From Escherichia coli (lineage in GTDB: Bacteria; Pseudomonadota; Gammaproteobacteria; Enterobacterales; Enterobacteriaceae): a stretch of 64,000 bases of DNA. Below the pieces are notes generated by a model. It was not told the origin of the DNA and did not search any database. It saw only the letters and a program-made list of their open reading frames with translations. Below are positions 4,722 to 61,734 of the stretch, piece after piece (positions within the stretch are counted from its first letter, which is position 1; each line of letters begins with the position of its first letter). Both the position numbers and the translations under genes were made by a program. The stretch is from the NCBI RefSeq assembly GCF_030384885.1, contig NZ_CP128613.1; one strand, 5' to 3'.

Positions 4722-6044
4722 ATGCAAGCCTATTTTGACCAGCTCGATCGCGTTCGTTATGAAGGCTCAAAATCCTCTAACCCGTTAGCATTCCGTCACT
4801 ACAATCCCGACGAACTGGTGTTGGGCAAGCGTATGGAAGAGCACTTGCGTTTTGCCGCCTGCTACTGGCACACCTTCTGCTGGAACGGGGCGGACATGTT
4901 TGGTGTGGGGGCGTTTAATCGTCCGTGGCAGCAGCCTGGTGAGGCACTGTCGTTGGCGAAGCGTAAAGCAGATGTCGCATTTGAGTTTTTCCACAAATTA
5001 CATGTGCCATTTTATTGCTTCCACGATGTGGATGTTTCCCCTGAGGGCGCGTCGTTAAAAGAGTACATCAATAATTTTGCGCAAATGGTTGATGTTCTGG
5101 CAGGCAAGCAAGAAGAGAGCGGCGTGAAGCTGCTGTGGGGAACCGCTAACTGCTTTACAAACCCTCGCTACGGCGCGGGCGCAGCGACGAACCCAGATCC
5201 TGAAGTCTTCAGTTGGGCGGCGACGCAAGTCGTTACGGCGATGGAAGCAACCCATAAATTGGGCGGTGAAAACTATGTTCTGTGGGGCGGTCGTGAAGGT
5301 TACGAAACGCTGTTAAATACCGACTTGCGTCAGGAGCGTGAACAACTGGGCCGCTTTATGCAGATGGTGGTTGAGCATAAACATAAAATCGGTTTCCAGG
5401 GCACGTTGCTTATCGAACCGAAACCGCAAGAACCGACCAAACATCAATATGATTACGATGCTGCGACAGTCTATGGCTTCCTGAAACAGTTTGGTCTGGA
5501 AAAAGAGATTAAACTGAACATTGAAGCTAACCACGCGACGCTGGCAGGTCACTCTTTCCATCATGAAATTGCCACCGCCATTGCGCTTGGCCTGTTCGGT
5601 TCTGTCGACGCCAACCGTGGCGATGCACAACTGGGCTGGGACACCGACCAGTTCCCGAACAGTGTGGAAGAGAATGCGCTGGTGATGTATGAAATTCTCA
5701 AAGCAGGCGGTTTCACCACCGGCGGTCTGAACTTCGATGCCAAAGTACGTCGTCAAAGTACTGATAAATATGATCTGTTTTACGGTCATATCGGTGCGAT
5801 GGATACGATGGCGTTGGCGCTGAAAATTGCAGCGCGCATGATTGAAGATGGCGAGCTGGATAAACGCATCGCGAAGCGTTATTCCGGCTGGAATAGCGAA
5901 TTAGGCCAGCAAATCCTGAAAGGCCAAATGTCACTGGCAGATTTAGCCAAATATGCTCAGGAACATAATTTGTCTCCGGTGCATCAGAGTGGTCGCCAGG
6001 AGCAACTGGAAAATCTGGTAAACCATTATCTGTTCGACAAATAA
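4722..6044 (+). CDS. xylA: Xylose isomerase
   Basis: ORF 4710..6044; start at second ATG ([17 protein letters not shown]...) with GGAG RBS 5 nt upstream; 440 aa. Confidence 0.97.
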
Positions 6045-13479: not shown

Positions 13480-13632
13480 ATGCCGCAGAAATATAGATTA
13501 CTTTCTTTAATAGTGATTTGTTGCACGCTTTTATTTTTCACCTGGATGATAAGAGATTCACTGTGTGAATTGCATATTAAACAGGGGAGTTATGAGCTGG
13601 CGGCATTTTTAGCCTGCAATTTGAAAGAGTAA
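13480..13632 (+). CDS. hokA: Hok-family type I toxin (50 aa), locus intact
   Basis: MPQKYRLLSLIVICCTLLFFTWMIRDSLCELHIKQGSYELAAFLACNLKE; in-frame upstream extension present in ORF track (mok-like leader region). Confidence 0.85.
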   Translation: MPQKYRLLSLIVICCTLLFFTWMIRDSLCELHIKQGSYELAAFLACNLKE

Positions 13633-17686: not shown

Positions 17687-20020
17687 TTGGCCAACTCATC
17701 CTCACGATATTCCGTTCTGACTGCCGCTCACTGGGGGCCCATGCTGGTTGAAACCGACGGCGAAACCGTGCTTAGCTCGCGTGGCGCGTTAGCCACAGGA
17801 ATGGAAAACTCCTTGCAGAGCGCGGTTCGCGACCAGGTTCACAGTAATACGCGGGTACGATTTCCAATGGTGCGCAAAGGCTTTCTTGCGTCACCGGAAA
17901 ACCCGCAAGGCATTCGTGGGCAGGATGAATTTGTTCGTGTGAGTTGGGATGAGGCGCTGGAGCTTATTCACCAACAACATAAACGTATTCGTGAGGCTTA
18001 TGGTCCGGCATCGATTTTTGCTGGTTCCTACGGCTGGCGTTCAAACGGCGTGCTGCATAAGGCCTCGACATTATTACAACGCTATATGGCGCTGGCAGGC
18101 GGTTATACCGGGCATCTGGGGGATTATTCGACCGGTGCAGCACAGGCGATCATGCCGTATGTCGTGGGGGGCAGCGAAGTTTATCAACAGCAAACCAGTT
18201 GGCCGTTGGTATTGGAACATAGCGATGTCGTGGTGCTATGGAGTGCTAACCCACTCAATACGCTGAAAATTGCGTGGAATGCATCCGATGAGCAGGGGCT
18301 TTCTTACTTTTCCGCACTGCGTGACAGCGGGAAAAAGCTGATCTGCATTGATCCAATGCGATCGGAAACCGTCGATTTCTTTGGCGATAAAATGGAGTGG
18401 GTGGCACCGCACATGGGCACCGATGTTGCGCTGATGCTGGGGATCGCCCATACGCTGGTGGAAAATGGCTGGCACGACGAAGCGTTTCTGGCGCGTTGCA
18501 CCACAGGTTATGACGTCTTCGCCTCTTATTTGCTGGGCGAGAGTGACGGAATAGCGAAAAATGCCGAATGGGCGGCAGAGATTTGTGGGATTAACGCAGA
18601 GAAAATCCGCGAACTGGCGGCTATTTTTCATCAAAATACCACCATGCTGATGGCTGGCTGGGGAATGCAGCGCCAGCAGTTTGGTGAGCAAAAACACTGG
18701 ATGATCGTCACCCTGGCAGCAATGTTAGGGCAAATCGGCACGCCTGGCGGGGGCTTTGGTCTTTCTTACCATTTTGCCAATGGTGGTAACCCTACGCGCC
18801 GCGCTGCGGTGCTTTCATCTATGCAGGGCAGCTTGCCAGGTGGCACCGATGCGGTAGATAAAATCCCTGTAGCCCGTATGGTTGAAGCTCTGGAAAACCC
18901 TGGCGGTGCATACCAACACAATGGCATGAACCGTCACTTCCCGGATATTCGTTTTATCTGGTGGGCGGGCGGCGCCAACTTTACTCATCATCAGGATACC
19001 AATCGCCTGATTCGTGCCTGGCAAAAACCGGAGCTGGTGGTGATCTCCGAATGCTTCTGGACGGCAGCGGCGAAACACGCCGATATCGTCCTCCCTGCAA
19101 CCACCTCGTTTGAGCGTAATGACCTCACCATGACCGGCGATTACAGTAATCAGCATCTGGTGCCGATGAAGCAAGTGGTGCCTCCACGTGATGAAGCGCG
19201 TAATGATTTTGCTGTCTTTGCCGAGTTGAGTGAACGTTGGGAGAAGGGCGGCTATGCGCGGTTTACGGAAGGAAAAAGTGAGCTGCAATGGCTGGAAACG
19301 TTTTATAACGTTGCACGGCAGCGCGGGGCAAGCCAGCAGGTTGAATTGCCGCCATTTGCTGAGTTCTGGGAAGCCAACCAGTTAATTGAGATGCCGGAAA
19401 ACCCGGACAGCGAGCGGTTTATTCGCTTCGCCGATTTTCGCCGCGATCCGCAGGCGCATCCATTAAAAACCGCCAGCGGCAAGATTGAAATCTTCTCGCA
19501 GCGTATTGCCGATTACGCTTATCCGGATTGCCCTGGGCATCCAATGTGGCTGGAGCCGGACGAATGGCAGGGCAATGCCGAACCGGAACAGTTGCAGGTA
19601 CTTTCTGCTCATCCGGCACATCGTCTGCACAGCCAGCTGAATTACAGTTCTCTGCGCGAATTGTACGCGGTGGCAAATCGTGAGCCTGTCACCATTCATC
19701 CTGACGATGCCCAGGCGCGCGGCATACAAGATGGCGATATTGTTCGGTTGTGGAACGCACGCGGGCAAATTCTTGCCGGAGCGGTCATTAGCGAGGGAAT
19801 TAAACCTGGCGTGATTTGCATTCATGAAGGGGCATGGCCGGATCTGGATTTAACCGCTGACGGTATTTGTAAAAACGGCGCGGTGAACGTTCTGACCAAA
19901 GATCTCCCCAGCTCGCGGCTGGGGAATGGCTGTGCGGGTAATACGGCGCTGGCATGGCTGGAAAAATACAACGGTCCGGAACTGACACTTACAGCGTTTG
20001 AACCACCGGCCAGCTCATAA
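17687..20020 (+). CDS. bisC: Biotin sulfoxide reductase (molybdopterin oxidoreductase)
   Basis: 777 aa ORF beginning at TTG with AGGAG RBS; [19 protein letters not shown]... Confidence 0.9.
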
Positions 20021-52660: not shown

Positions 52661-54157
52661 ATGCAGGGCACAAAAATTCGACTTTTAGCGGGCGGTTTGC
52701 TGATGATGGCCACTGCTGGCTATGTGCAGGCAGATGCGCTCCAGCCTGATCCAGCATGGCAACAGGGGACGCTTTCCAACGGTTTACAGTGGCAAGTGCT
52801 GACCACGCCCCAGCGTCCCAGCGATCGCGTTGAAATTCGCCTGCTGGTTAATACCGGTTCGCTCGCCGAAAGTACACAACAGAGCGGTTACAGTCACGCC
52901 ATCCCTCGTATTGCGTTAACGCAAAGCGGTGGCCTTGAAGCAGCACAGGCGCGTTCATTGTGGCAGCAGGGGATCGACCCTAAACGCCCGATGCCGCCGG
53001 TAATTGTCTCTTATGACACCACGCTGTTTAATCTGAGTTTGCCCAATAACCGTAACGACTTGCTGAAAGAAGCGCTCTCTTATCTGGCAAATGCCACTGG
53101 CAAACTGACTATCACGCCAGAAACCATCAACCACGCGCTGCAAAGTCAGGACATGGTGGCAACCTGGCCTGCCGATACTAAAGAGGGCTGGTGGCGCTAT
53201 CGTCTGAAAGGATCAACCTTGTTAGGTCACGATCCTGCCGATCCGCTGAAACAACCCGTTGAAGCGGAAAAGATTAAAGATTTCTATCAGAAATGGTACA
53301 CCCCGGATGCAATGACGCTGCTGGTGGTGGGAAACGTGGATGCGCGCTCGGTTGTCGACCAAATCAACAAAACGTTTGGCGAACTGAAAGGCAAACGTGA
53401 AACACCGGCTCCGGTGCCGACGCTTTCTCCGCTGCGTCCTGAAGCGGTGAGTATTATGACCGATGCGGTACGTCAGGACCGGTTATCTATCATGTGGGAT
53501 ACGCCGTGGCAGCCTATTCGTGAATCAGCCGCACTGCTGCGCTACTGGCGTGCGGACCTGGCCCGTGAGGCGCTGTTCTGGCACGTTCAGCAAGCGTTAA
53601 GCACCAGTAACAGCAAAGACATCGGTCTTGGATTTGACTGCCGTGTGCTGTATCTGCGTGCGCAGTGTGCCATCAACATCGAATCACCAAACGACAAGCT
53701 GAACAGCAACCTTAATTTGGTAGCGCGTGAGCTGGCAAAGGTTCGCGATAAAGGTCTGCCGGAAGAAGAGTTCAATGCGTTAGTGGCGCAAAAGAAACTG
53801 GAGCTGCAGAAACTGTTTGCCGCCTATGCGCGAGCTGATACCGATATTTTGATGGGTCAGCGGATGCGTTCGTTGCAAAATCAGGTCGTTGATATCGCGC
53901 CGGAGCAATATCAGAAACTGCGCCAGGACTTCCTTAACAGCCTGACGGTGGAGATGTTAAATCAGGATCTGCGTCAGCAGTTGTCGAACGATATGGCGTT
54001 AATTCTTCTGCAGCCGAAAGGCGAGCCAGAATTTAACATGAAAGCGTTGCAGGCGGCCTGGGATCAAATCATGGCCCCATCTACTACTGCTGCCACAACC
54101 TCAGTTGCCACGGATGACGTACATCCTGAAGTGACGGATATTCCACCCGCACAGTAA
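52661..54157 (+). CDS. yhjJ: Periplasmic zinc-peptidase-like protein YhjJ (M16 family-like)
   Basis: 498 aa with signal peptide; synteny after dctA. Confidence 0.9.
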   Translation: MQGTKIRLLAGGLLMMATAGYVQADALQPDPAWQQGTLSNGLQWQVLTTPQRPSDRVEIRLLVNTGSLAESTQQSGYSHAIPRIALTQSGGLEAAQARSLWQQGIDPKRPMPPVIVSYDTTLFNLSLPNNRNDLLKEALSYLANATGKLTITPETINHALQSQDMVATWPADTKEGWWRYRLKGSTLLGHDPADPLKQPVEAEKIKDFYQKWYTPDAMTLLVVGNVDARSVVDQINKTFGELKGKRETPAPVPTLSPLRPEAVSIMTDAVRQDRLSIMWDTPWQPIRESAALLRYWRADLAREALFWHVQQALSTSNSKDIGLGFDCRVLYLRAQCAINIESPNDKLNSNLNLVARELAKVRDKGLPEEEFNALVAQKKLELQKLFAAYARADTDILMGQRMRSLQNQVVDIAPEQYQKLRQDFLNSLTVEMLNQDLRQQLSNDMALILLQPKGEPEFNMKALQAAWDQIMAPSTTAATTSVATDDVHPEVTDIPPAQ

Positions 54158-54360
54158 TAAATCACCCGGCAGCGTTTCTTCTGCGCTGCCGGGATTAACG
54201 GTAATAAATTAGTTACCGTGATATAACCGCAGATATTTTTCCTGGCACGGCGGTAGCGCGCAGATAACCATTCATTATTAAAATAAACTTACCGTAGAGT
54301 GGGTTTAATTATTTATTAGCTGAATAAATTATACCGGTGCCTCCTGGAAGGAGTGAGTTT

Positions 54361-54786
54361 ATGCTTGTGTTAAAATCACAATCGATTGGATTCAGGATTT
54401 CCACAGCTTATTTATCTTTAACATATACAGAGTCTGATGGCGTCAAGATTAAAGTAGATGCTCTGGAGTTAATATCAACAGAGAGAGATTATGTTCAAAT
54501 TGAACTGGTCTTCACTACTGTTGCTGAAGTTAAGTGTGCTACCGTCAATTTTTATGAAGCCAACTATAACAATATTGTTATTAAGAAGGTTGATGGTGAA
54601 AATCTGGACTCCGGTATATATCAAGTAATGAATTCTGTACCGCTTGAAGAAAAAGAGAAATTATATGATCCTAAAAAACGGTTGAAGTTAAAACATTATA
54701 TTATAGCAGGTTATGATAGTTATGTTGAGATTTTAGCTACTGGTTTTAGCTGTATACGATGCCAGGCAATAGATGGTGTTAAATAA
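54361..54786 (+). CDS. Hypothetical protein (141 aa), first gene of AT-rich accessory cassette; no signal peptide or TM segment
   Basis: ATG with AGGAG RBS 7 nt upstream; about 33 percent GC; stop overlaps next start (TAATG). Confidence 0.6.
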   Translation: MLVLKSQSIGFRISTAYLSLTYTESDGVKIKVDALELISTERDYVQIELVFTTVAEVKCATVNFYEANYNNIVIKKVDGENLDSGIYQVMNSVPLEEKEKLYDPKKRLKLKHYIIAGYDSYVEILATGFSCIRCQAIDGVK

Positions 54787-55040
54787 TGGCCTATCATATA
54801 GAAATATTGAAAATTGAAGAAACTGATAAAGTAGTAAAATATGAATTTGGACCTACATCTTCTGACTATTGTAGATCTGATTACGGCGAATTCGTGATAG
54901 ATAAAAGAACGGGTGAGATGACATTAGTCAGAATGGTTAAAAACGATTCAGCTAATAAATTTTATTTGCGAGCGAGTTTTAAGATTCTGACCTGTTGGCG
55001 AAAGGGCTATTTGCCAAAAAATGAGGAATGGGCTTCTTAA
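54786..55040 (+). CDS. Hypothetical small protein (84 aa), translationally coupled to upstream ORF
   Basis: ATG overlaps upstream stop by 1 nt; AT-rich; no recognisable motif. Confidence 0.55.
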   Translation: MAYHIEILKIEETDKVVKYEFGPTSSDYCRSDYGEFVIDKRTGEMTLVRMVKNDSANKFYLRASFKILTCWRKGYLPKNEEWAS

Positions 55041-55139
55041 TAAGTAACTTTGCAGAATAAGTGAATTTTCCCATTTTTTTGGGGGCAGTCGTTGATTCTT
55101 ACACAGTTTATGTTATGGGTGCCAAATTTAGGATAGGCT

Positions 55140-55619
55140 ATGGATTTTCACTTGGATATTTTGCTCCCTACACAATTCGCTCCAGAGGAACTAGATCTAC
55201 AAGAGGTTATGATTCACTGGGGTGGGGAAACCTTTCATCGCGACCCTCCGGTATACGCCTGGTGTAATCATCATCTTTTGCAGAGATGCAATCTACCGAT
55301 TACTTATGGCCCACCTTTAGATGAGCACATAGACTTTAATGAATATCATGTTTACAACTTCAATGGTTCTTTAGTCGATGACCTGGAAATGGCTGTGAAT
55401 AAAGGAAAGGATATTTCAACCAATCCTATAATTAAATTTATTAACAACCTGGTTAGCAAAAATTACGGGGGGTGGGTAATCTTGTCATTAGATGATGAAA
55501 AAATAGAAGTGATTAAAAATATAAGCTTCCAGTATTCTTTTCTATCATTATTAGTTGATGGACTAAAATGGGAAAGACCGCATGGGGTGGCAATATTATA
55601 TAATTCACACTTAATTTAA
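55140..55619 (+). CDS. Hypothetical protein (159 aa), cytoplasmic-type
   Basis: ATG with AGGATAGG RBS; AT-rich; no TM. Confidence 0.6.
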   Translation: MDFHLDILLPTQFAPEELDLQEVMIHWGGETFHRDPPVYAWCNHHLLQRCNLPITYGPPLDEHIDFNEYHVYNFNGSLVDDLEMAVNKGKDISTNPIIKFINNLVSKNYGGWVILSLDDEKIEVIKNISFQYSFLSLLVDGLKWERPHGVAILYNSHLI

Positions 55620-55640
55620 TTAATTAATGAATGGAAACAT

Positions 55641-55943
55641 ATGTATCGTGTAAAGGTTGTTTGGCTTACAGAAAATGAAGGTGGCAGAAGGAGCGCACCT
55701 CCTATCGGTAGATATTATCCCGTCTCCAGGTTTCCAGAGGAGAAAACTGACTGGCAAAATAATGCATGGAGTGTTGTTTTTGAATTGGAAAAACCTAATG
55801 TAACCGATGGACGTATCGTTTCAATGGGGTGCGTTCAGTTCCTTTTCGATACCGCCCCTGAACAATGGATGACTAAGTACGAGGCATTTGAGATCTACGA
55901 AGGACCAAGAAAAGTCGCAGATGTATTATTGATAGGGAATTAA
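55641..55943 (+). CDS. Hypothetical small protein (100 aa) with apparent similarity to the C-terminal beta-barrel (domain 3) of EF-Tu-type translational GTPases
   Basis: By-eye alignment to E. coli EF-Tu domain 3: VKVVWLTENEGGRR vs EVYILSKDEGGRH, RYYPV vs GYRPQ, C-terminal AFEIYEGPRKVADVLL vs RFAIREGGRTVGAGVV. Confidence 0.55.
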   Translation: MYRVKVVWLTENEGGRRSAPPIGRYYPVSRFPEEKTDWQNNAWSVVFELEKPNVTDGRIVSMGCVQFLFDTAPEQWMTKYEAFEIYEGPRKVADVLLIGN

Positions 55944-56004
55944 TTTTATTTATGTCAGGCTATTTAATTATATTTGCGACCTCAACGCATTTTCAGGAGT
56001 ATAA

Positions 56005-56538
56005 ATGCGTAACAAAAAACGCATACTATTCTTGCTAACAGTCATTTTTTGCTTAACAGGTCTTTATTCCTGCAACAAAAATTTTCTCTTACTCTGGGAT
56101 GCCAATAATATGTATGTCAGCACAAGAAATAATATCGATAAAGACAAGGTAAAAATAGAATTCGGTATCAGCGTCAACACGATCAACCGAGAAACGGATG
56201 CCGAATTATTTGCTGACAGAGATAAGTATGCAGTGCTCTTCGATGGTAGCCTGAAAAATAAGATGATAAGCGAATACGGAGAAAATGATTTTTTAATTAC
56301 CTACGATAACCGCTGCTATTTATCATTTCGTCAATTTAAAACAAATCGTCGTCATCAACATGACTATTATTTTGACTTCTTTAACAAGGATGGGAATGTC
56401 TTCGTCACGGTCGAAATTAAAGGTGAGAACCCGCTTAAATTTACGCGTAGTTTTAATGATATGCGTCAGCAGTTTTCACCATTCCGTAAGGGTAGCCCTT
56501 CTCACTCCTGCAAGGTTATTTCTTCAGATCCTTCTTAA
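56005..56538 (+). CDS. Hypothetical lipoprotein (177 aa)
   Basis: AGGAG RBS; N-terminus MRNKKRILFLLTVIFCLTGLYSC resembles lipoprotein signal peptide; 3' end overlaps convergent gene by 23 nt. Confidence 0.6.
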   Translation: MRNKKRILFLLTVIFCLTGLYSCNKNFLLLWDANNMYVSTRNNIDKDKVKIEFGISVNTINRETDAELFADRDKYAVLFDGSLKNKMISEYGENDFLITYDNRCYLSFRQFKTNRRHQHDYYFDFFNKDGNVFVTVEIKGENPLKFTRSFNDMRQQFSPFRKGSPSHSCKVISSDPS

Positions 56539-58510
56539 ACACTGGTTCTGGACAATCACGACCAAAATGCGCCGCCCAGTCAAAAGATTTACCGTTTTTC
56601 ACGTAGCGTTGATAAATTAATGCACCGGTTTCTGGATCAAGATATCTGATCCAACTTGCAGCATGGCATAACACGGCAGCCCAAGCCTGGGTTTTAGGGT
56701 GAAGTAAATCGGCTGATTGTCCGGCCCATTCCGCAGCCTGCCAGCGGTAATGCAAAAAATGCTCATCAACAGTGGGGATTGCGTGGCGGAAACGTTGTTT
56801 TTCTTTACGACTTATCCACTGATCGTTATTGCTGTATTCAAAGGGTTCTGAATACTGCCCGCTGGTAATGGCATAATCGGGATACATTTCATAAGCCGCC
56901 AATTCGATACCACTGAAACGCAAAAGCCGCGCAGCTTCGTATTGCGCCTGGGCGCGTTGCTTATCAGGGATGTTTTTATTTTTTGCTATCGCCATTAAAT
57001 CAGCCAGTTTTTGTGCGGCCTGGCGATAATTGGGAATATCAAACCAATTGATGGCCTGCTGGTACTGGCCATGACGAATTAATCGTCTACCCAATAACGC
57101 CCGTAATTTAACATCCGTTGGAATGATATCTGGCGAAAGATAATAACCGTCATTGTTATTATTTAAATCTACAGGTTTTAAAGGGTGCTGAGGTACCGGT
57201 ACGTTTTTTTCAACAAACGCCTGTAACTCCGGTAAGGTCAAAACGTTTTCTGCAACCCAGGCTAAATCGGCCCAATAGAGATCTTTGGCCTGGTAAAACA
57301 ATGCGGTGGCCTGAAGATAATCATCGCGTTTTAATGCCAAAATCGCCTGCTCACTGGCAATACGGCAAGATGGGATAATAACTTTATCTCCATGATAATA
57401 AGGACTTTCCGGGTCCATACTTCCCCACACTTCATCGGTCGGGAACATCGGGGCTGCGCGAGCATAGTGACGCGTTGCCAGTGGAATATCTCCGGCTCGT
57501 AATGCCATTTTTGCTTTTAACCATTCGCTTAATCCACTTTCTGGCGCATCCTGCAACAGCGTTTGTGCTAACGAATAATTTCCTGCCCGATACGCCAGTG
57601 CTGCCAGGCGATCGCTATAACTAAATCCTTTAACTCTGTGTTGACTTAGCAACTTAATTAAACGGTCGCGATGCGTTGGACAGGTATAATCTACAAGGTC
57701 CTTAGTACAGGCTTCGCTAACATACCCCCAGTCATGACGAATAAAGAGCTCTGCGATTACCAGTTGCTGAACCAGAGAATCATTAATAACCGACTCCAGC
57801 AGTGGTAAATTTTTCTCCCTGGTTATATACAGCGAAATCATCCGTAGCGACGCTTTCCCGGAGGGCGAACCCTGGGCCGCTTGCCGGGCATACATTTTTA
57901 CTGCCGCAGCGACATCACCTTTTTTCAGATAATAATGCCCAATCTGACCGAGACTGGCGAGAGAGAGCAATTCAGGATCGGCTGCGCCATTACGCACTTC
58001 TTCAATGATTTGCTGATAACGCTGTATGGCCTGCTCAGCAAGTTCCTGATTAAAGCCACCTTTATTGATTATAAGATCGAGATCGTCGTCAGAGGCATCA
58101 AATCCCCCCCTTGCCAGACTATATAGCGCAGCCAGCCGCCATTCTCCTTGCTCTGTTTTCGGCAAGGCTAATAATTGCTGAAAGTATGGGCTATCGTATT
58201 TTCCCTGATGGAAATCCTTAGCTCCTGAATAATAAAGTTCCAGTGCCCGATTTTGCACAGGAGGTTCAGCATCTGTATCTGTCTGCGTTGCCTCTTCAGG
58301 CGTATTTTCTTGCCATACTGGTAAACCAGGATCGCGTTTAACCAACTGTTGTACTTCAAAGACAAAACTGCCATTTGGCATTTCCAGCAGTGCGCTATTG
58401 CGGTCAGTTAACAGATGATTGGGAATAAATGGTCCACAGGCATTAACGTTGGCGCTAATTAGCGAGAGAAATACAACAACGGAAAGCCGCGATATTTTAG
58501 GGGATAACAT
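56516..58510 (-). CDS. Hypothetical large lipoprotein (664 aa) with helical repeat (TPR/Sel1-like) character
   Basis: ORF 56516..58735; start placed at ATG 58510 (MLSPKISRLSVVVFLSLISANVNAC, lipobox) with AGGAGAG RBS; near-native GC; start overlaps upstream gene stop by 14 nt. Confidence 0.75.
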   Translation of the reverse strand: MLSPKISRLSVVVFLSLISANVNACGPFIPNHLLTDRNSALLEMPNGSFVFEVQQLVKRDPGLPVWQENTPEEATQTDTDAEPPVQNRALELYYSGAKDFHQGKYDSPYFQQLLALPKTEQGEWRLAALYSLARGGFDASDDDLDLIINKGGFNQELAEQAIQRYQQIIEEVRNGAADPELLSLASLGQIGHYYLKKGDVAAAVKMYARQAAQGSPSGKASLRMISLYITREKNLPLLESVINDSLVQQLVIAELFIRHDWGYVSEACTKDLVDYTCPTHRDRLIKLLSQHRVKGFSYSDRLAALAYRAGNYSLAQTLLQDAPESGLSEWLKAKMALRAGDIPLATRHYARAAPMFPTDEVWGSMDPESPYYHGDKVIIPSCRIASEQAILALKRDDYLQATALFYQAKDLYWADLAWVAENVLTLPELQAFVEKNVPVPQHPLKPVDLNNNNDGYYLSPDIIPTDVKLRALLGRRLIRHGQYQQAINWFDIPNYRQAAQKLADLMAIAKNKNIPDKQRAQAQYEAARLLRFSGIELAAYEMYPDYAITSGQYSEPFEYSNNDQWISRKEKQRFRHAIPTVDEHFLHYRWQAAEWAGQSADLLHPKTQAWAAVLCHAASWIRYLDPETGALIYQRYVKNGKSFDWAAHFGRDCPEPVFKKDLKK

Positions 58511-59705
58511 TGAACTCTCCTTGTAAATTTGGGGTGCATCGCGCCCATCCCAGCGCACTGCTTTCACCAGCACGCAACTGCCTGGTACTGATGCGAATAA
58601 AACGTAACGAGGATGCGTTGGTTTGTGCCTGATAATGGCCTGCGCCATCAGCATATGTGCATTGAGCAGCAGGCAGCTCGATCTGTTGTGGCAATGGCGC
58701 GTCAATATCACCATTGTTTTTAATGGCCAAATCAATAAGTTGCTTGTCAGCCTGTGGCGAAATTATCAAAGACCAGCGCGGCGTCAAAGGTTTATGGTGA
58801 ATAACGGCATCTAAAGTAGACAGGGACCAGGCGCGGCGATCATTTGCCAGCGGGAGTCGGAACCAGATAAATCCCTGTAACCCTGAGGGCGGTTTTTGTT
58901 CCAGCTGTTGGGTAAAATCAGCCAACGTTTGTGGCGCCACACTCAGCTCCCGCAACTCTTGTGCAATATACAGTGGGGCTTCGCTTTCAATACGGTTATC
59001 GCGCGTCAGCGCAGAACCGTAAGCCGGCAGAGCGATGTAAAAAGGATGGGGAGAAATACGTGCATATTGCGTGCTCCAGCGCTTAGCCAGTTTACTGTCG
59101 AATAATCCCTGTTGCGGCGATAACACCGTATGCACCTGCAAAACAGAAATATCGGCGTCAGCCAGCAGCGCAGGCAGATGTGGTGAATTCAGCCAGTCAG
59201 GTAATGCAGTAATACTGAGTTTTAATTCTGCAGGAAGATTCTGGCGCAATGTCCTTAGCAACTGTTGGTATTCCACCAGTTTTGCCGTTGGCGCATCGAA
59301 ATCAATTTCAATGCCAGCCAGCTTAATACCCGCCTCTTTCCACTCATTCATTGTTCGTACAATGTTCTGCACAACATTTTGTTGATTAATATGAGAGAGC
59401 TTACCGTCCAGTCGCGCAACCAGCCAGACGGGGCGATCATCTTGTTTTATAAATGTTTTATTAACGGCGGTGTAGCGTATACCTTCCTGAGGATGAACTT
59501 GTAGCTCCAGAATGCGTAGCGTTGAGAACAGATTACGGCTCTGTTTTAGTGCGTGCTCATGTTGCGCGGTCCACAAACGCTGCCAGATATAGACTTGTTG
59601 ATCGAGGGGGCGTGTTTTTTGCGGCATAAGCCGGGTCAGCAGCCCATATCCAGAGCCGATAAAAACGATGAGTGAAATGGCAAAAATCCATTTGCGAGAG
59701 GGCAT
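58497..59705 (-). CDS. Hypothetical membrane-anchored periplasmic protein (402 aa); alternating beta-strand/helix pattern and GIEIDFD motif suggest a TIM-barrel glycosidase-like fold (inference)
   Basis: N-terminal TM helix IFAISLIVFIGSGYGLL; motifs VWLVARLDG, AGIKLAGIEIDFDAP, ISVLQVHTV; translationally coupled to downstream lipoprotein gene. Confidence 0.75.
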   Translation of the reverse strand: MPSRKWIFAISLIVFIGSGYGLLTRLMPQKTRPLDQQVYIWQRLWTAQHEHALKQSRNLFSTLRILELQVHPQEGIRYTAVNKTFIKQDDRPVWLVARLDGKLSHINQQNVVQNIVRTMNEWKEAGIKLAGIEIDFDAPTAKLVEYQQLLRTLRQNLPAELKLSITALPDWLNSPHLPALLADADISVLQVHTVLSPQQGLFDSKLAKRWSTQYARISPHPFYIALPAYGSALTRDNRIESEAPLYIAQELRELSVAPQTLADFTQQLEQKPPSGLQGFIWFRLPLANDRRAWSLSTLDAVIHHKPLTPRWSLIISPQADKQLIDLAIKNNGDIDAPLPQQIELPAAQCTYADGAGHYQAQTNASSLRFIRISTRQLRAGESSALGWARCTPNLQGEFNVIP

Positions 59706-59758
59706 TTGAACCCGGAATCCATGTGGTCAATAACAGAAAGTATACTGCGGAACTATTT

Positions 59759-59790
59759 AGCGGAGAAATTATTCCATTAATTTCTCCGCT
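59759..59790. terminator. Perfect 13-bp-arm hairpin between kdgK stop and the downstream operon (candidate terminator/attenuator)
   Basis: agcggagaaatta-ttccat-taatttctccgct; no canonical U-tract on the kdgK transcript side. Confidence 0.4.
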
Positions 59791-59806
59791 ATGATTGATG
59801 TGTTAT

Positions 59807-60736
59807 TTACTGAGGCATGGCTTCGCGAGGAATAATCGCGCCGCGATACTGAATAACGGTACTTGCGGTCAGGTGCCCGCGTTTCGCCGCATTTTCCGCA
59901 CTGGCGCCCGTCAAACGTACCGCCAGATAACCGGCACTGAAAGAGTCGCCAGCTGCAGTGGTATCGATCACTTTTTCTTTTGGCAGTTTCACCGCCGGAA
60001 CATCCACTAACCCCTCGCCAGCAATGGACACCAGGCAAGAATCCGCCCCGCGTTTCACCACCACTTCTTTCACGCCCGCGTTATGGGTGCGCGCAATGAC
60101 GTCTTCCACCGGTTGTTGACCCCACAGCGCGTCTTCGTCGTCCAGCGTCAGGAAGGCGATATCCGTGCATTCCAGCATTTGCTGGTACATCTGCTGTGTC
60201 TCTTCTTTGCTGGCCCACAAGCGCGGACGGTAGTTATTGTCGAAAATCACTTTTCCACCGTTAGTGCGGCATTCGCGCAGCAGGGAAAGCAGCTTTTCGC
60301 GGCTGGTCGGGCTTAAGATTGCCAGGCTAATCCCGCTCAGGTAGAGATAATCAAAATTCGCCAGCTCTGCACAAATCGCTGCGGATTGCTCACTCTCCAG
60401 CCAAAATTTGGCGGCGGCTTCGTTACGCCAGTAGTAGAACGTACGTTCGCCAGTGCTGTCGGTTTCAATGTAGTAAAGACCCGGCAGACGGTTTTCCATC
60501 CGCTGGGTCAGGGAAGTATCAACGTTCTCGCCGTGCCAGGCGTCCAGCATCTGCTGACTAAAACTGTCCGTTCCCAGCGCCGTCACGTAATGAACGGTTA
60601 ATGCCGCAGGATCGACCTGACGGGCGATATAGACGGAAGTGTTCAGGGTATCGCCGCCGAAACCGCGCTTAACGTCCGCGCCTTTCTCGGAAAGCTCAAT
60701 CATGCATTCGCCAATCACGGCAATCTTTTTGGACAT
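59807..60736 (-). CDS. kdgK: 2-dehydro-3-deoxygluconokinase
   Basis: 309 aa; MSKKIAVIGECMIELSEKGADVKRGFGGDTLNTSVYIARQV; PfkB family. Confidence 0.95.
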   Translation of the reverse strand: MSKKIAVIGECMIELSEKGADVKRGFGGDTLNTSVYIARQVDPAALTVHYVTALGTDSFSQQMLDAWHGENVDTSLTQRMENRLPGLYYIETDSTGERTFYYWRNEAAAKFWLESEQSAAICAELANFDYLYLSGISLAILSPTSREKLLSLLRECRTNGGKVIFDNNYRPRLWASKEETQQMYQQMLECTDIAFLTLDDEDALWGQQPVEDVIARTHNAGVKEVVVKRGADSCLVSIAGEGLVDVPAVKLPKEKVIDTTAAGDSFSAGYLAVRLTGASAENAAKRGHLTASTVIQYRGAIIPREAMPQ

Positions 60737-60800
60737 AGTCGTGAACCTGATCTGTAAAAATTAGCGTTAGTTTGCGCTGTGGTGGTTTGCTGGTCAACCA

Positions 60801-60822
60801 TATTAAAACAGTGTTCCATTAT
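60801..60822. promoter_or_regulatory. Candidate KdgR operator upstream of kdgK
   Basis: Imperfect palindrome ttaaaacagtgttccatt resembling the KdgR box (AAAACA n TGTTTC-like half sites). Confidence 0.35.
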
Positions 60823-60891
60823 TTTTTTGAGCCAGAACGTATTCCTGAAAGATTCCGTAGTGGAGTGGGGAAATTTAACCCGGTCAGGCGG

Positions 60892-60918
60892 TAAAGTTCT
60901 GCTCTTGCGCGCCGATAA
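60892..60918 (+). promoter_or_regulatory. Sigma-28 (FliA) class 3 flagellar promoter for pdeH
   Basis: TAAAGTTC - 11 nt - GCCGATAA, matching FliA consensus TAAAGTTT-N11-GCCGATAA, about 50 nt upstream of pdeH ATG. Confidence 0.65.
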
Positions 60919-60966
60919 TCTTTGTCAAGTCCGGGCAGCATCACTTTTAAACACAGGACATCTTTG

Positions 60967-61734
60967 ATGATAAGGCAGGTTATCCAGCGAATAAGCAACC
61001 CTGAAGCAAGCATCGAGAGCTTGCAGGAACGGCGTTTTTGGTTGCAGTGTGAGCGTGCTTACACCTGGCAGCCGATCTATCAAACCTGCGGACGGTTAAT
61101 GGCCGTGGAGCTATTAACGGTGGTCACGCATCCCTCGAACCCTTTACAACGTCTGCCGCCGGATCGCTATTTTACTGAAATCACCGTCAGCCATCGGATG
61201 GAGGTTGTGAAAGAGCAGATTGATTTGCTGGCGCAAAATGCCGACTTCTTTGTCGAGCACGGCCTGCTGGCATCGGTCAATATTGATGGTCCTACGCTCA
61301 TCGCCCTGCGTCAGCAACCAAAAATCCTGCGCCAGATTGAGCATCTTCCCTGGCTGCGTTTCGAACTGGTAGAACACATCCGCCTGCCAAAAGACTCAAC
61401 CTTTGCCTCGATGTGTGAATTTGGTCCGCTGTGGCTGGATGATTTCGGCACTGGGATGGCAAATTTCTCTGCGCTAAGTGAAGTACGTTACGACTACATC
61501 AAAATCGCCCGTGAGCTGTTTGTGATGCTGCGTCAGTCGCCGGAAGGACGCACGCTCTTTTCTCAGCTTTTACATCTAATGAATCGCTATTGTCGCGGGG
61601 TGATTGTCGAAGGTGTGGAAACGCAGGAAGAGTGGCGCGATGTACAAAATTCGCCTGCATTTGCCGCACAAGGCTGGTTTCTTTCACGCCCGGCACCGAT
61701 AGAAACGCTGAATTCGGCAGTTCTGGCGCTATAA
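60967..61734 (+). CDS. pdeH: c-di-GMP phosphodiesterase PdeH (EAL domain)
   Basis: ORF 60922..61734; start at MIRQVIQRISNPEAS gives 255 aa. Confidence 0.92.
   Translation: MIRQVIQRISNPEASIESLQERRFWLQCERAYTWQPIYQTCGRLMAVELLTVVTHPSNPLQRLPPDRYFTEITVSHRMEVVKEQIDLLAQNADFFVEHGLLASVNIDGPTLIALRQQPKILRQIEHLPWLRFELVEHIRLPKDSTFASMCEFGPLWLDDFGTGMANFSALSEVRYDYIKIARELFVMLRQSPEGRTLFSQLLHLMNRYCRGVIVEGVETQEEWRDVQNSPAFAAQGWFLSRPAPIETLNSAVLAL

Follow-up and report, generated by a model that had tools for sequence, protein, structure and literature searches.

Why do two genes of unlike base composition run into each other tail to tail, and does their meeting point mark a recent event? In the stretch of DNA analysed here (the window, 64,000 nt of the Escherichia coli contig NZ_CP128613.1), a plus-strand gene, ORF5, and a minus-strand gene for a 664-aa protein with TPR repeats share their 3' ends over 23 nt (Table 1). 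A sequence-only reading had taken this convergent overlap for the junction of two modules, an AT-rich cassette that includes ORF5 and an operon of native GC content, and had proposed that it might record the insertion point and lead to transcriptional interference. Our analysis places the overlap differently. It is very likely an old, inherited and passive by-product of a segment boundary within a mosaic island, not a structure made in this genome, and we infer that it has no function of its own.

Table 1. Positions of genes, island segments and junction features in the window
Feature	Position	Strand	Basis or content
ORF5, 177-aa protein	56005..56538	+	RefSeq WP_001244697.1, family alignment, pN/pS, AlphaFold2
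Hypervariable ORF5 tail	56476..56515	+	codons 158-170; breakpoint 56475/56476
Convergent overlap	56516..56538	.	ORF list and sequence
664-aa TPR-containing protein gene	56516..58510	−	RefSeq WP_074500958.1, family alignment
402-aa DUF3142 protein gene, first in DUF3142→TPR operon	58497..59705	−	PF11340
S1, four AT-rich small genes	54314..55994	+	RefSeq genes 54361-54786, 54786-55040, 55140-55619, 55641-55943
S2, ORF5 body with 10-nt leader	55995..56515	+	common to all ORF5-bearing alleles
S3, ~3.2-kb indel carrying DUF3142→TPR	56516..~59758	−	junction sequences
Palindromic hairpin downstream of kdgK (AGCGGAGAAATTA…TAATTTCTCCGCT)	59759..59790	.	inverted repeat 59758-59791

Two coding genes with shared 3' ends

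On the plus strand the overlap holds the final ORF5 codons, …V I S S D P S, with the stop TAA at 56536-56538. On the minus strand it holds the final six sense codons of the TPR gene, …K K D L K K, and the stop TAA, which appears as TTA at 56516-56518 on the plus strand; the start ATG of this gene lies at 58510. The overlap itself is confirmed, with the ORF list, the sequence and the RefSeq annotation agreeing that ORF5 ends at 56538 and the TPR gene at 56516. The RefSeq annotation of E. coli 2013C-4282 (NZ_CP027579.1), whose locus is identical to that of the window except at 59506 and 60927, gives both genes the same ends (WP_001244697.1 and WP_074500958.1). The earlier statement that no intergenic terminator separates the two genes also stands. 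A terminator scan of both strands found no terminator-like site out to about 400 nt from the junction, scan and folding gave no GC-rich hairpin with a T-run at or between the two 3' ends, and the RNA across the junction folded no better than its shuffles (z = +0.6 and +1.0 for the two strands). A search of 53500-61000 against Rfam returned no match. The GC step across the junction is likewise real, with values of 36.7% for ORF5, 46.0% for the TPR gene, 49.0% for the DUF3142 gene and 53-55% for the flanking genes yhjJ and kdgK.

Both partners are genuine coding genes, as judged from their relatives, the pN/pS of the ORF5 body, the conserved motifs of the TPR protein and the RefSeq annotation. 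The ORF5 family comprises 169 database relatives and has 28 invariant alignment columns. Between alleles, pN/pS was 0.11-0.22 for the ORF5 body (codons 25-157) and about 0.6-1.5, from few sites, for the tail, in which 38% of the columns are variable; the tail codons upstream of the overlap thus seem weakly constrained at the protein level. The AlphaFold2 model (mean pLDDT 79.6) has an N-terminal helix and a beta-rich core, and its pLDDT drops to 50-63 beyond residue 150 and to under 50 at residues 174-177. ORF5 gave no significant fold match (best E = 0.15), no sequence match in the PDB and no family in Pfam, NCBIfam or PADLOC. Its N-terminus forms a hydrophobic helix or signal, and Cys23 in the motif …CLTGLYSC would make the product a putative lipoprotein; the UniRef name is 'Lipoprotein'. 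A lipobox is a signal peptide ending in [LVI][ASTVI][GAS]-C, of which the PROSITE PS51257 rule is a looser version. Judged by eye, …CLTGLYS-C23 meets the loose rule and not the strict lipobox, and the cysteine is absent from most aligned relatives outside Escherichia.

These relatives are 41-60% identical to ORF5, and every one with a named organism comes from Bacteroidota (Riemerella, Tenacibaculum, Cyclobacteriaceae and several MAGs). At the two non-Escherichia loci inspected, one in Riemerella and one on a metagenome contig, the relative of ORF5 is a solitary gene in a housekeeping-type setting. Since the C-termini of the Bacteroidota relatives align with the Escherichia ORF5 tail and finish only a few residues further on, ORF5 is essentially full length. 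The relatives, the low GC content of 36.7% and the patchy distribution together suggest that ORF5 may have been acquired from Bacteroidota. As an observation in its own right, ORF5 is a Bacteroidota-type gene that has become fixed in Escherichia by purifying selection.

The TPR protein belongs to a proteobacterial family with 55 detected relatives (Pseudocitrobacter 61%, Serratia 44-46% and Xanthomonadales 33-36% identity). It has a signal-like N-terminus, where by eye …ANVNA-C carries N at -2 and so is not a canonical lipobox, while ACGP is invariant in the family; at the other end, the conserved motif FGRDCPEP(V)F is followed by a short variable tail. The 3' end of the DUF3142 gene overlaps the start of the TPR gene by 14 nt. 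Its 402-aa product matches Pfam PF11340 with 247 bits (cut-off 30; E = 2.1e-73) and has a weak sequence match to PDB 8y6t, a 'DUF3142 domain-containing protein'. A DUF3142 structure is deposited as 8y6t/9vtv, and our literature search found no paper on DUF3142 or on 8y6t. At the three loci inspected, in Pseudocitrobacter, Escherichia sp. E4385 and Serratia, the TPR gene likewise follows a DUF3142 gene and overlaps it by 14 nt. The Pseudocitrobacter and Serratia loci carry the pair without ORF5, and our summary of the segments lists the operon without ORF5 in Xanthomonadales as well. The idea that the operon once had a native terminator and lost it in Escherichia was set aside: when the region 3' of the TPR gene was scanned in Pseudocitrobacter, Serratia and the contig L018, the sole match was a palindromic hairpin in Serratia, on the opposite strand and ~260-280 nt downstream of the TPR stop. 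In the window, the uncharacterised DUF3142→TPR operon adjoins a cellulose (bcs) and c-di-GMP gene neighbourhood.

A mosaic island in the yhjJ–kdgK gap

Two convergent core genes, yhjJ (52661-54157, +) and kdgK (59807-60736, −), border the gap that the island occupies. Base-level comparison of alleles divides the island into three independently assorting segments, S1, S2 and S3. Our survey of E. coli covered 5,426 complete genomes; together with the other loci compared, these show the gap in six allelic states. About 5,200 genomes have an empty, K-12-like gap with a 95-nt spacer. ORF5 stands alone in E. whittamii. S1 with ORF5, and with neither TPR nor DUF3142 gene, forms the 042-type, which includes JSWP006 and accounts for about 170 genomes. 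ORF5 with S3 forms the SMS-3-5-type (SMS-3-5, TUM13936 and FDAARGOS_943/944), and the full set of S1, ORF5 and S3, with all seven genes, occurs only in the window strain and GF4-3. In the sixth state S3 is accompanied by an ORF5 remnant (E4385) or by no ORF5 (L018). The E4385 remnant is ~90 nt long and lies beside an operon whose TPR allele is 72% identical (nt) to that of the window; on contigs L018-L020 the operon faces another convergent neighbour beyond a 99-nt spacer. On the metagenomic contig L009, ORF5 lies within a longer array of small genes.

The left array varies in content. GF4-3, L009 and L018 carry a different set of genes there that includes TriTu (PF24689) genes, with scores of 61-66 bits (cut-off 27) for the array genes of GF4-3 and L009 and a precomputed match for L018/L019. 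ORF1-5 of the window gave no match to PF24689 even at E <= 5, and ORF1-4 of S1 matched no model in Pfam, NCBIfam or PADLOC. Considered by itself, the gap is a multi-state hotspot with immunity-like arrays, and our literature search found no publication that describes it as a variable locus.

The 23-nt overlap recurs at every locus that carries both ORF5 and S3, namely in 30 of the 5,426 complete E. coli genomes, on the metagenomic contig L021 and in Escherichia sp. E1V33. In complete E. coli genomes with S3, ORF5 was present and overlapping in 30/30, and most of the 30 lack S1. A search of 100,044 species-representative genomes for the junction sequence gave E1V33 alone, with the same layout and the same overlap. 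The view that the 177-aa gene forms a unit with the four other AT-rich genes does not survive this distribution, as the overlap persists at loci that lack those four (SMS-3-5, TUM13936, FDAARGOS_943/944, L021 and E1V33). Nor is the operon native, as had been supposed from its GC content. The module is accessory: it is carried by ~0.6% of E. coli genomes (30/5,426) and by other genera, and its GC content is 46-49% against the 53-55% of the flanking genes.

The left edge of ORF5 tells where the AT-rich array ends. S1 stands in place of a ~69-nt native ORF5 leader that is seen in TUM13936 and E. whittamii. With a slash at the junction, these two read …GGGTTTAATTATT/GCTGTGG…ATG(ORF5) and the window reads …GGGTTTAATTATT/TATTAGC…. 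Loci of the SMS-3-5-type, which lack S1, align with the window again from 55995, 10 nt ahead of the ORF5 start. The true boundary of the 'cassette' is therefore 55994/55995, 520 nt from the overlap. S2, the part of ORF5 that follows, probably serves as an anchor for homologous recombination.

The results above bear directly on the proposal that the overlap is the scar of a five-gene AT-rich cassette inserted at the 3' end of a native operon in this genome. The GC step, the lack of a terminator between ORF5 and the TPR gene, and a segment boundary at the TPR stop codon are all features that fit such a scar, yet we consider it very improbable: the overlap is present in the S1-less loci named above, the four-gene array stops short at 55994/55995, the supposed recipient operon is itself accessory, and the island holds no integrase or transposase domain in any ORF and no long terminal repeats. 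Secondary deletions that each spared exactly ORF5 are argued against by the native-looking leader in TUM13936 and E. whittamii. An insertion recorded in this genome is also at odds with the 30 genomes that carry the same overlap and with E4385, where the operon lies beside an ORF5 remnant.

S3 has its left edge at the TPR stop codon and its right edge just before the kdgK terminator hairpin. In TPR-bearing loci the left junction reads AAGG/TTATTTCTTCAG and the right junction GAAAC(T/G)ATT/AACGGAGAACG…, and in ORF5-only loci a single junction reads AAGG(CG)ATT/AACGGAGAACG…. In longer form, the ORF5-only loci have …TGCAAGG(CG)ATT/AACGGAGAACGAATATCTACCCGTTCTCCGT…kdgK, and the left side of the TPR-bearing loci has …TGCAAGGTTATT/TCTTCAG…. 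The right junction of the window is a diverged one, CTATTT/AGCGGAG at 59753-59765. S3-bearing and ORF5-only states accordingly differ by one precise indel of ~3.2 kb, whose left edge comes within a few bases of the TPR stop codon. Similarity between the ends of S3 amounts to only 3-5 nt (ATT / TATT), which fits a microhomology-mediated deletion or insertion. S3 may have been inserted beside ORF5 or deleted from the ORF5-only loci, and neither the junctions nor the outgroup-like allele L009 nor the Bacteroidota tails polarise the indel: L009 and the ORF5-only loci have just 'ATTAA' in common, and the likeness of KAINGERI to KVLYNGIEL is too weak.

The sequence-only reading had proposed a comparison with genomes that carry only one of the two modules, and this comparison confirmed a boundary at the overlap. 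In the ORF5-only loci (042, JSWP006 and E. whittamii), recognisable similarity to the window ends at ~56515-56520 and is followed by the kdgK hairpin. The hairpin that lies directly 3' of ORF5 in these loci is the one that TPR-bearing loci have beyond the operon, and the window has a diverged version of it; in 042, where it falls inside the ORF5 tail, its folding is strong (z = -3.3 and -2.9). L018, which has the TPR gene and no ORF5, gives the opposite edge of the overlap: it diverges from the window at 56536-56539, just past the conserved …CPEPVF codons. Because the ORF5-only loci break at ~56515 and L018 at 56536-56539, the boundary between S2 and S3 is fixed from both sides, and the last 23 nt of ORF5, stop codon included, are therefore DNA of the TPR segment. 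The tail of the TPR protein is native: E4385 keeps …FKKDLKK before the stop beside its ORF5 remnant, and the TAVIKR ending of L018 has the same length. Since the TPR gene ends at its native position, all 23 nt represent read-through of ORF5. The module junction was thus correctly placed in so far as compositionally distinct segments do meet between 56515 and 56516, but the edge of the five-gene cassette lies instead at 55994/55995. The same comparison also turned up the overlap at loci without the rest of the cassette, close to what that reading had named as evidence against itself.

The window itself carries a mixed history. Starting at yhjJ and as far as 56475, its identity to 042-type loci is 98.2-98.5%; from 56476 it has the ORF5 tail haplotype with which S3 is always linked. 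The nearest S3 to its own is that of L018 (TPR gene 92% identical), and the other S3 alleles of E. coli reach only 83-88% identity. On the simplest reading of these alignments, the window would have arisen by homologous recombination inside ORF5, one parent having S1+ORF5 and the other ORF5+S3, with the breakpoint at 56475/56476.

Read-through, chance and selection at the overlap

The proposed origin follows from what each right-hand segment offers to an ORF5 frame that lacks its own stop. Some Escherichia have the low-GC ORF5 in the yhjJ–kdgK gap; its specific sequence breaks off at ~56515 without a stop codon, and the frame runs on into the DNA on its right. Where S3 is present, the frame reaches a stop after 7 codons (…VISSDPS, then stop) in the antisense of the TPR gene, giving the 23-nt overlap. 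Where S3 is absent, as in the about 170 E. coli genomes that include 042 and JSWP006 and in E. whittamii, it stops after 24 codons (…INGERISTRSPSKTIIPALPHAG, then stop), having crossed the kdgK hairpin, and overlaps kdgK by 29 nt. In L009, where another small gene comes next, the stop follows after 2 codons (…SSCEIK, then stop). Because the model gives the borrowed tail low confidence and the codons just before that tail are little constrained, the arrangement can be tolerated and inherited. Homologous recombination in ORF5 and in the flanking core genes would then reshuffle the left arrays and the right operon around it.

The length of the overlap agrees with this origin. A stop-free frame entering the antisense of the TPR gene has a median run of 11-20 codons, with P(run <= 6) = 0.23, and six sense codons plus a stop is an ordinary length for chance read-through. 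Overlaps of this size are not confined to the island: the 64-kb window has six further convergent pairs, and two of these overlap, bisC/yiaC by 32 nt and hokA with a small ORF by 24 nt.

Conservation of the 23 nt was equally ordinary. The overlap sequence is identical in five E. coli alleles, E4385 and E1V33, and L021 carries three substitutions in it, which change D to V in ORF5, turn its stop from TAA to TGA in place and give the TPR tail FRKELKK. In the six-allele alignment 3/23 overlap columns vary, and 33% of 23-nt windows of the module are at least as conserved. Nothing in these alignments points to nucleotide-level selection on the overlap. A 38-nt block that is invariant in five alleles was considered as a sign of special conservation of the overlap and set aside, as it ranks only eighth among the invariant runs. 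Around the overlap, ~53 nt are identical between the window and E4385, which elsewhere is 72% identical; recombination may explain this identity, and nucleotide-level selection also could. Both stop codons hold their position in all ORF5+S3 alleles, and the in-place change from TAA to TGA in L021, a single event, could hint at selection on length. Transcriptional interference, which had been raised as a consequence of the overlap, is possible and gained no support here, as the overlap is no more conserved than the module around it and has no RNA structure.

A further reading makes the overlap a selected device resembling an excludon. ORF5, with its upstream array, and DUF3142→TPR would repress each other through antisense 3' ends or polymerase collision. 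The absence of a terminator or hairpin at the junction, the retention of the overlap and of both stop positions in all ORF5+S3 alleles, and the fact that ORF5 overlaps its convergent neighbour in both contexts (TPR gene 23 nt, kdgK 29 nt) would suit such a device. We nevertheless judge it improbable. The conservation of the 23 nt is unexceptional and L021 departs from it at three positions, each partner occurs without the other, and the overlap is as long as chance read-through would make it. The ORF5 promoter region also varies, S1 having replaced the leader, which is unexpected of a tuned circuit. Untranslated antisense RNA is, moreover, normally terminated by Rho.

Alternatively, ORF5 and the TPR and DUF3142 genes could work together as a three-gene module, such as an envelope complex or an enzyme plus its inhibitor or immunity protein, whose tight packing reflects co-inheritance. 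The trio is the commonest S3-bearing layout (30/30 complete E. coli genomes and E1V33) and all three products have signal-like N-termini, but the operons of Pseudocitrobacter, Serratia and L018 manage without ORF5, the ORF5 of E4385 is a pseudogene remnant, and some 170 E. coli genomes, E. whittamii and Bacteroidota have ORF5 but no operon. ORF5 and the operon also differ in phyletic origin and GC content, and a module of this kind seems unlikely to us, with little probability left to it.

A bolder reading takes in the gap as a whole. Tentatively, and with rather less than even confidence, the yhjJ–kdgK gap may be an undescribed Escherichia recombination hotspot built around ORF5 as an anchor, at which arrays of small orphan genes of immunity-like kind, from TriTu and unknown families, are exchanged on the left and DUF3142→TPR, as an envelope operon, on the right, and the overlaps are the trace of that exchange. 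ORF5 would, as part of this same tentative picture, be a Bacteroidota-type membrane-anchored protein held by purifying selection. A more speculative version would add that the ORF5 overlaps are also a selected antisense coupling.

Two points follow for the reading of such junctions. The locus offers an example of a short convergent overlap that arises passively when a gene without a stop meets another segment and that then survives recombination. It also advises caution, in that an overlap with a GC step across it is no pointer to where a recent insertion took place.

Comparison with known systems

What defines excludons, described in Listeria, is the mapping of long antisense transcripts together with reciprocal expression. 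The ORF5/TPR pair resembles them in having neighbours that face each other with no terminator between them; its sequence shows no extra conservation or structure. Orphan immunity arrays with TriTu (PF24689) genes offer a second comparison, which concerns S1. The likeness is that allelic left arrays carry TriTu and vary in content by strain. The difference is that ORF1-5 of the window match no immunity or defence model and have no toxin gene nearby.

Closer parallels come from overlaps of the same kind. The bisC/yiaC pair in the same window consists, like ORF5/TPR, of real genes on opposite strands with an overlap of similar length, no terminator and stable inheritance. It is, however, a core-genome pair, whereas the ORF5/TPR overlap lies at a segment boundary and has its ORF5 stop supplied by the partner segment. 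The nearest counterpart is the ORF5/kdgK overlap of 042, JSWP006 and E. whittamii, which involves the same gene, the same breakpoint and the same read-through mechanism. It differs from ORF5/TPR in its tail of 24 codons rather than 7, which crosses a strong hairpin and reaches 29 nt into a core gene.

Allelic states of the yhjJ–kdgK gap

Across Escherichia, the gap between yhjJ and kdgK occurs in at least six allelic states. It may be empty, hold ORF5 (the 177-aa putative lipoprotein gene) alone, hold a small-gene array with ORF5 or ORF5 with the two-gene DUF3142→TPR operon, or contain all of these together; in the remaining state the operon is present and ORF5 has been lost. The K-12 spacer and the intergenic DNA flanking the island share no homology, so one state replaces another instead of arising by simple insertion. 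In some strains the island also contains IS insertions, namely E. coli E22 (match H34) and LP-26-E1-261 (matches H62/H63), with an IS5-like element of the ISKpn26 family and IS1A as the types found. These insertions are further evidence of the plasticity of the locus. Our literature search found no published description of the yhjJ–kdgK gap as a variable locus.

Coordinates of the island features, their counterparts in comparison loci (L-numbers) and other convergent overlaps in the window
Feature	Window	Comparison loci
yhjJ–kdgK gap	54158-59806	L002-L012, L016, L018-L021, L023
ORF5 and relatives	56005-56538	L013 8001-8549; L014 8001-8585
ORF5 of operon-free loci		L007 4356-4940 (E. coli 042); L012 6001-6582 (E. 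whittamii)
ORF5 3' remnant, ~90 nt, from codon ~150		L016 reverse complement 5877-6000 (Escherichia sp. E4385)
DUF3142→TPR operon	56516-59705	L015, L016, L017
Split DUF3142 gene, 170-aa and 209-aa ORFs		L018 3806-5014; also L019, L020
Pfam TriTu (PF24689) immunity-family genes, allelic left-hand arrays		L003 2029-2277; L009 3315-3611; L018 9587-9886
bisC/yiaC convergent overlap, annotated, 32 nt	19989-20020	
hokA/small hypothetical ORF convergent overlap, annotated, 24 nt	13609-13632	

The presence of TriTu genes in allelic left-hand arrays suggests that the small-gene array is of an orphan-immunity type. The window's own array genes, ORF1-4 (54361-55943), gave no matches to Pfam, NCBIfam or PADLOC models.

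Compared with RefSeq NZ_CP027579.1, the window has two base differences, T rather than C at 59506 and A rather than G at 60927. By manual codon count, the first of these alters codon 67 of the DUF3142 gene, a Gly codon in NZ_CP027579.1 but a Glu codon in the window. Both differences could stem from a different version of the assembly or from a variant of the strain.

Origin and 3' end of ORF5

All organism-named relatives of ORF5 outside Escherichia are from Bacteroidota (Riemerella, Tenacibaculum and Cyclobacteriaceae), at 41-60% identity, and at the two loci compared the gene is solitary in housekeeping surroundings. Escherichia ORF5 has a GC content of 36.7%, and pN/pS values of 0.11-0.22 for its body indicate purifying selection. 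The gene appears to have been acquired across phyla and then kept. Neither fold nor family matches were obtained for ORF5.

In E. coli 042 and E. whittamii, which lack the operon, ORF5 encodes 193-194 aa. A strong terminator-type hairpin (ACGGAGAACG-N9-CGTTCTCCGT, z about -3) lies inside the translated tail of ORF5 at these operon-free loci and, past the hairpin, the tail shares 29 nt with the core gene kdgK.

In E4385, the ORF5 remnant is fused with the yhjJ terminator region. The neighboring TPR allele is only 63% identical to that of the window at the amino acid level and 72% at the nucleotide level, yet ~53 nt around the ORF5/TPR overlap are identical, a pattern suggestive of a recombination tract at the TPR gene's 3' end.

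The DUF3142→TPR operon

The allele closest to the window's operon is the metagenomic L018 type, in which the TPR gene has a different seven-codon tail and is separated by a 99-nt spacer from a convergent 292-aa gene. The split DUF3142 gene of L018-L020 is probably a frameshift or pseudogene.

In the window the operon lies next to cellulose (bcs) and c-di-GMP genes. For DUF3142, a structure has been deposited (PDB 8y6t/9vtv), and our literature search found no publication on it. The two-gene arrangement, with its 14-nt start/stop overlap, is conserved across Escherichia, Pseudocitrobacter and Serratia. Within the TPR protein, ACGP is invariant directly after the signal-like N-terminus, and an FG..CP.P.F motif is conserved close to the C-terminus. 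Xanthomonadales contain protein-level relatives of the TPR protein, and these versions carry an extra C-terminal extension that is hydrophobic and Arg-rich.
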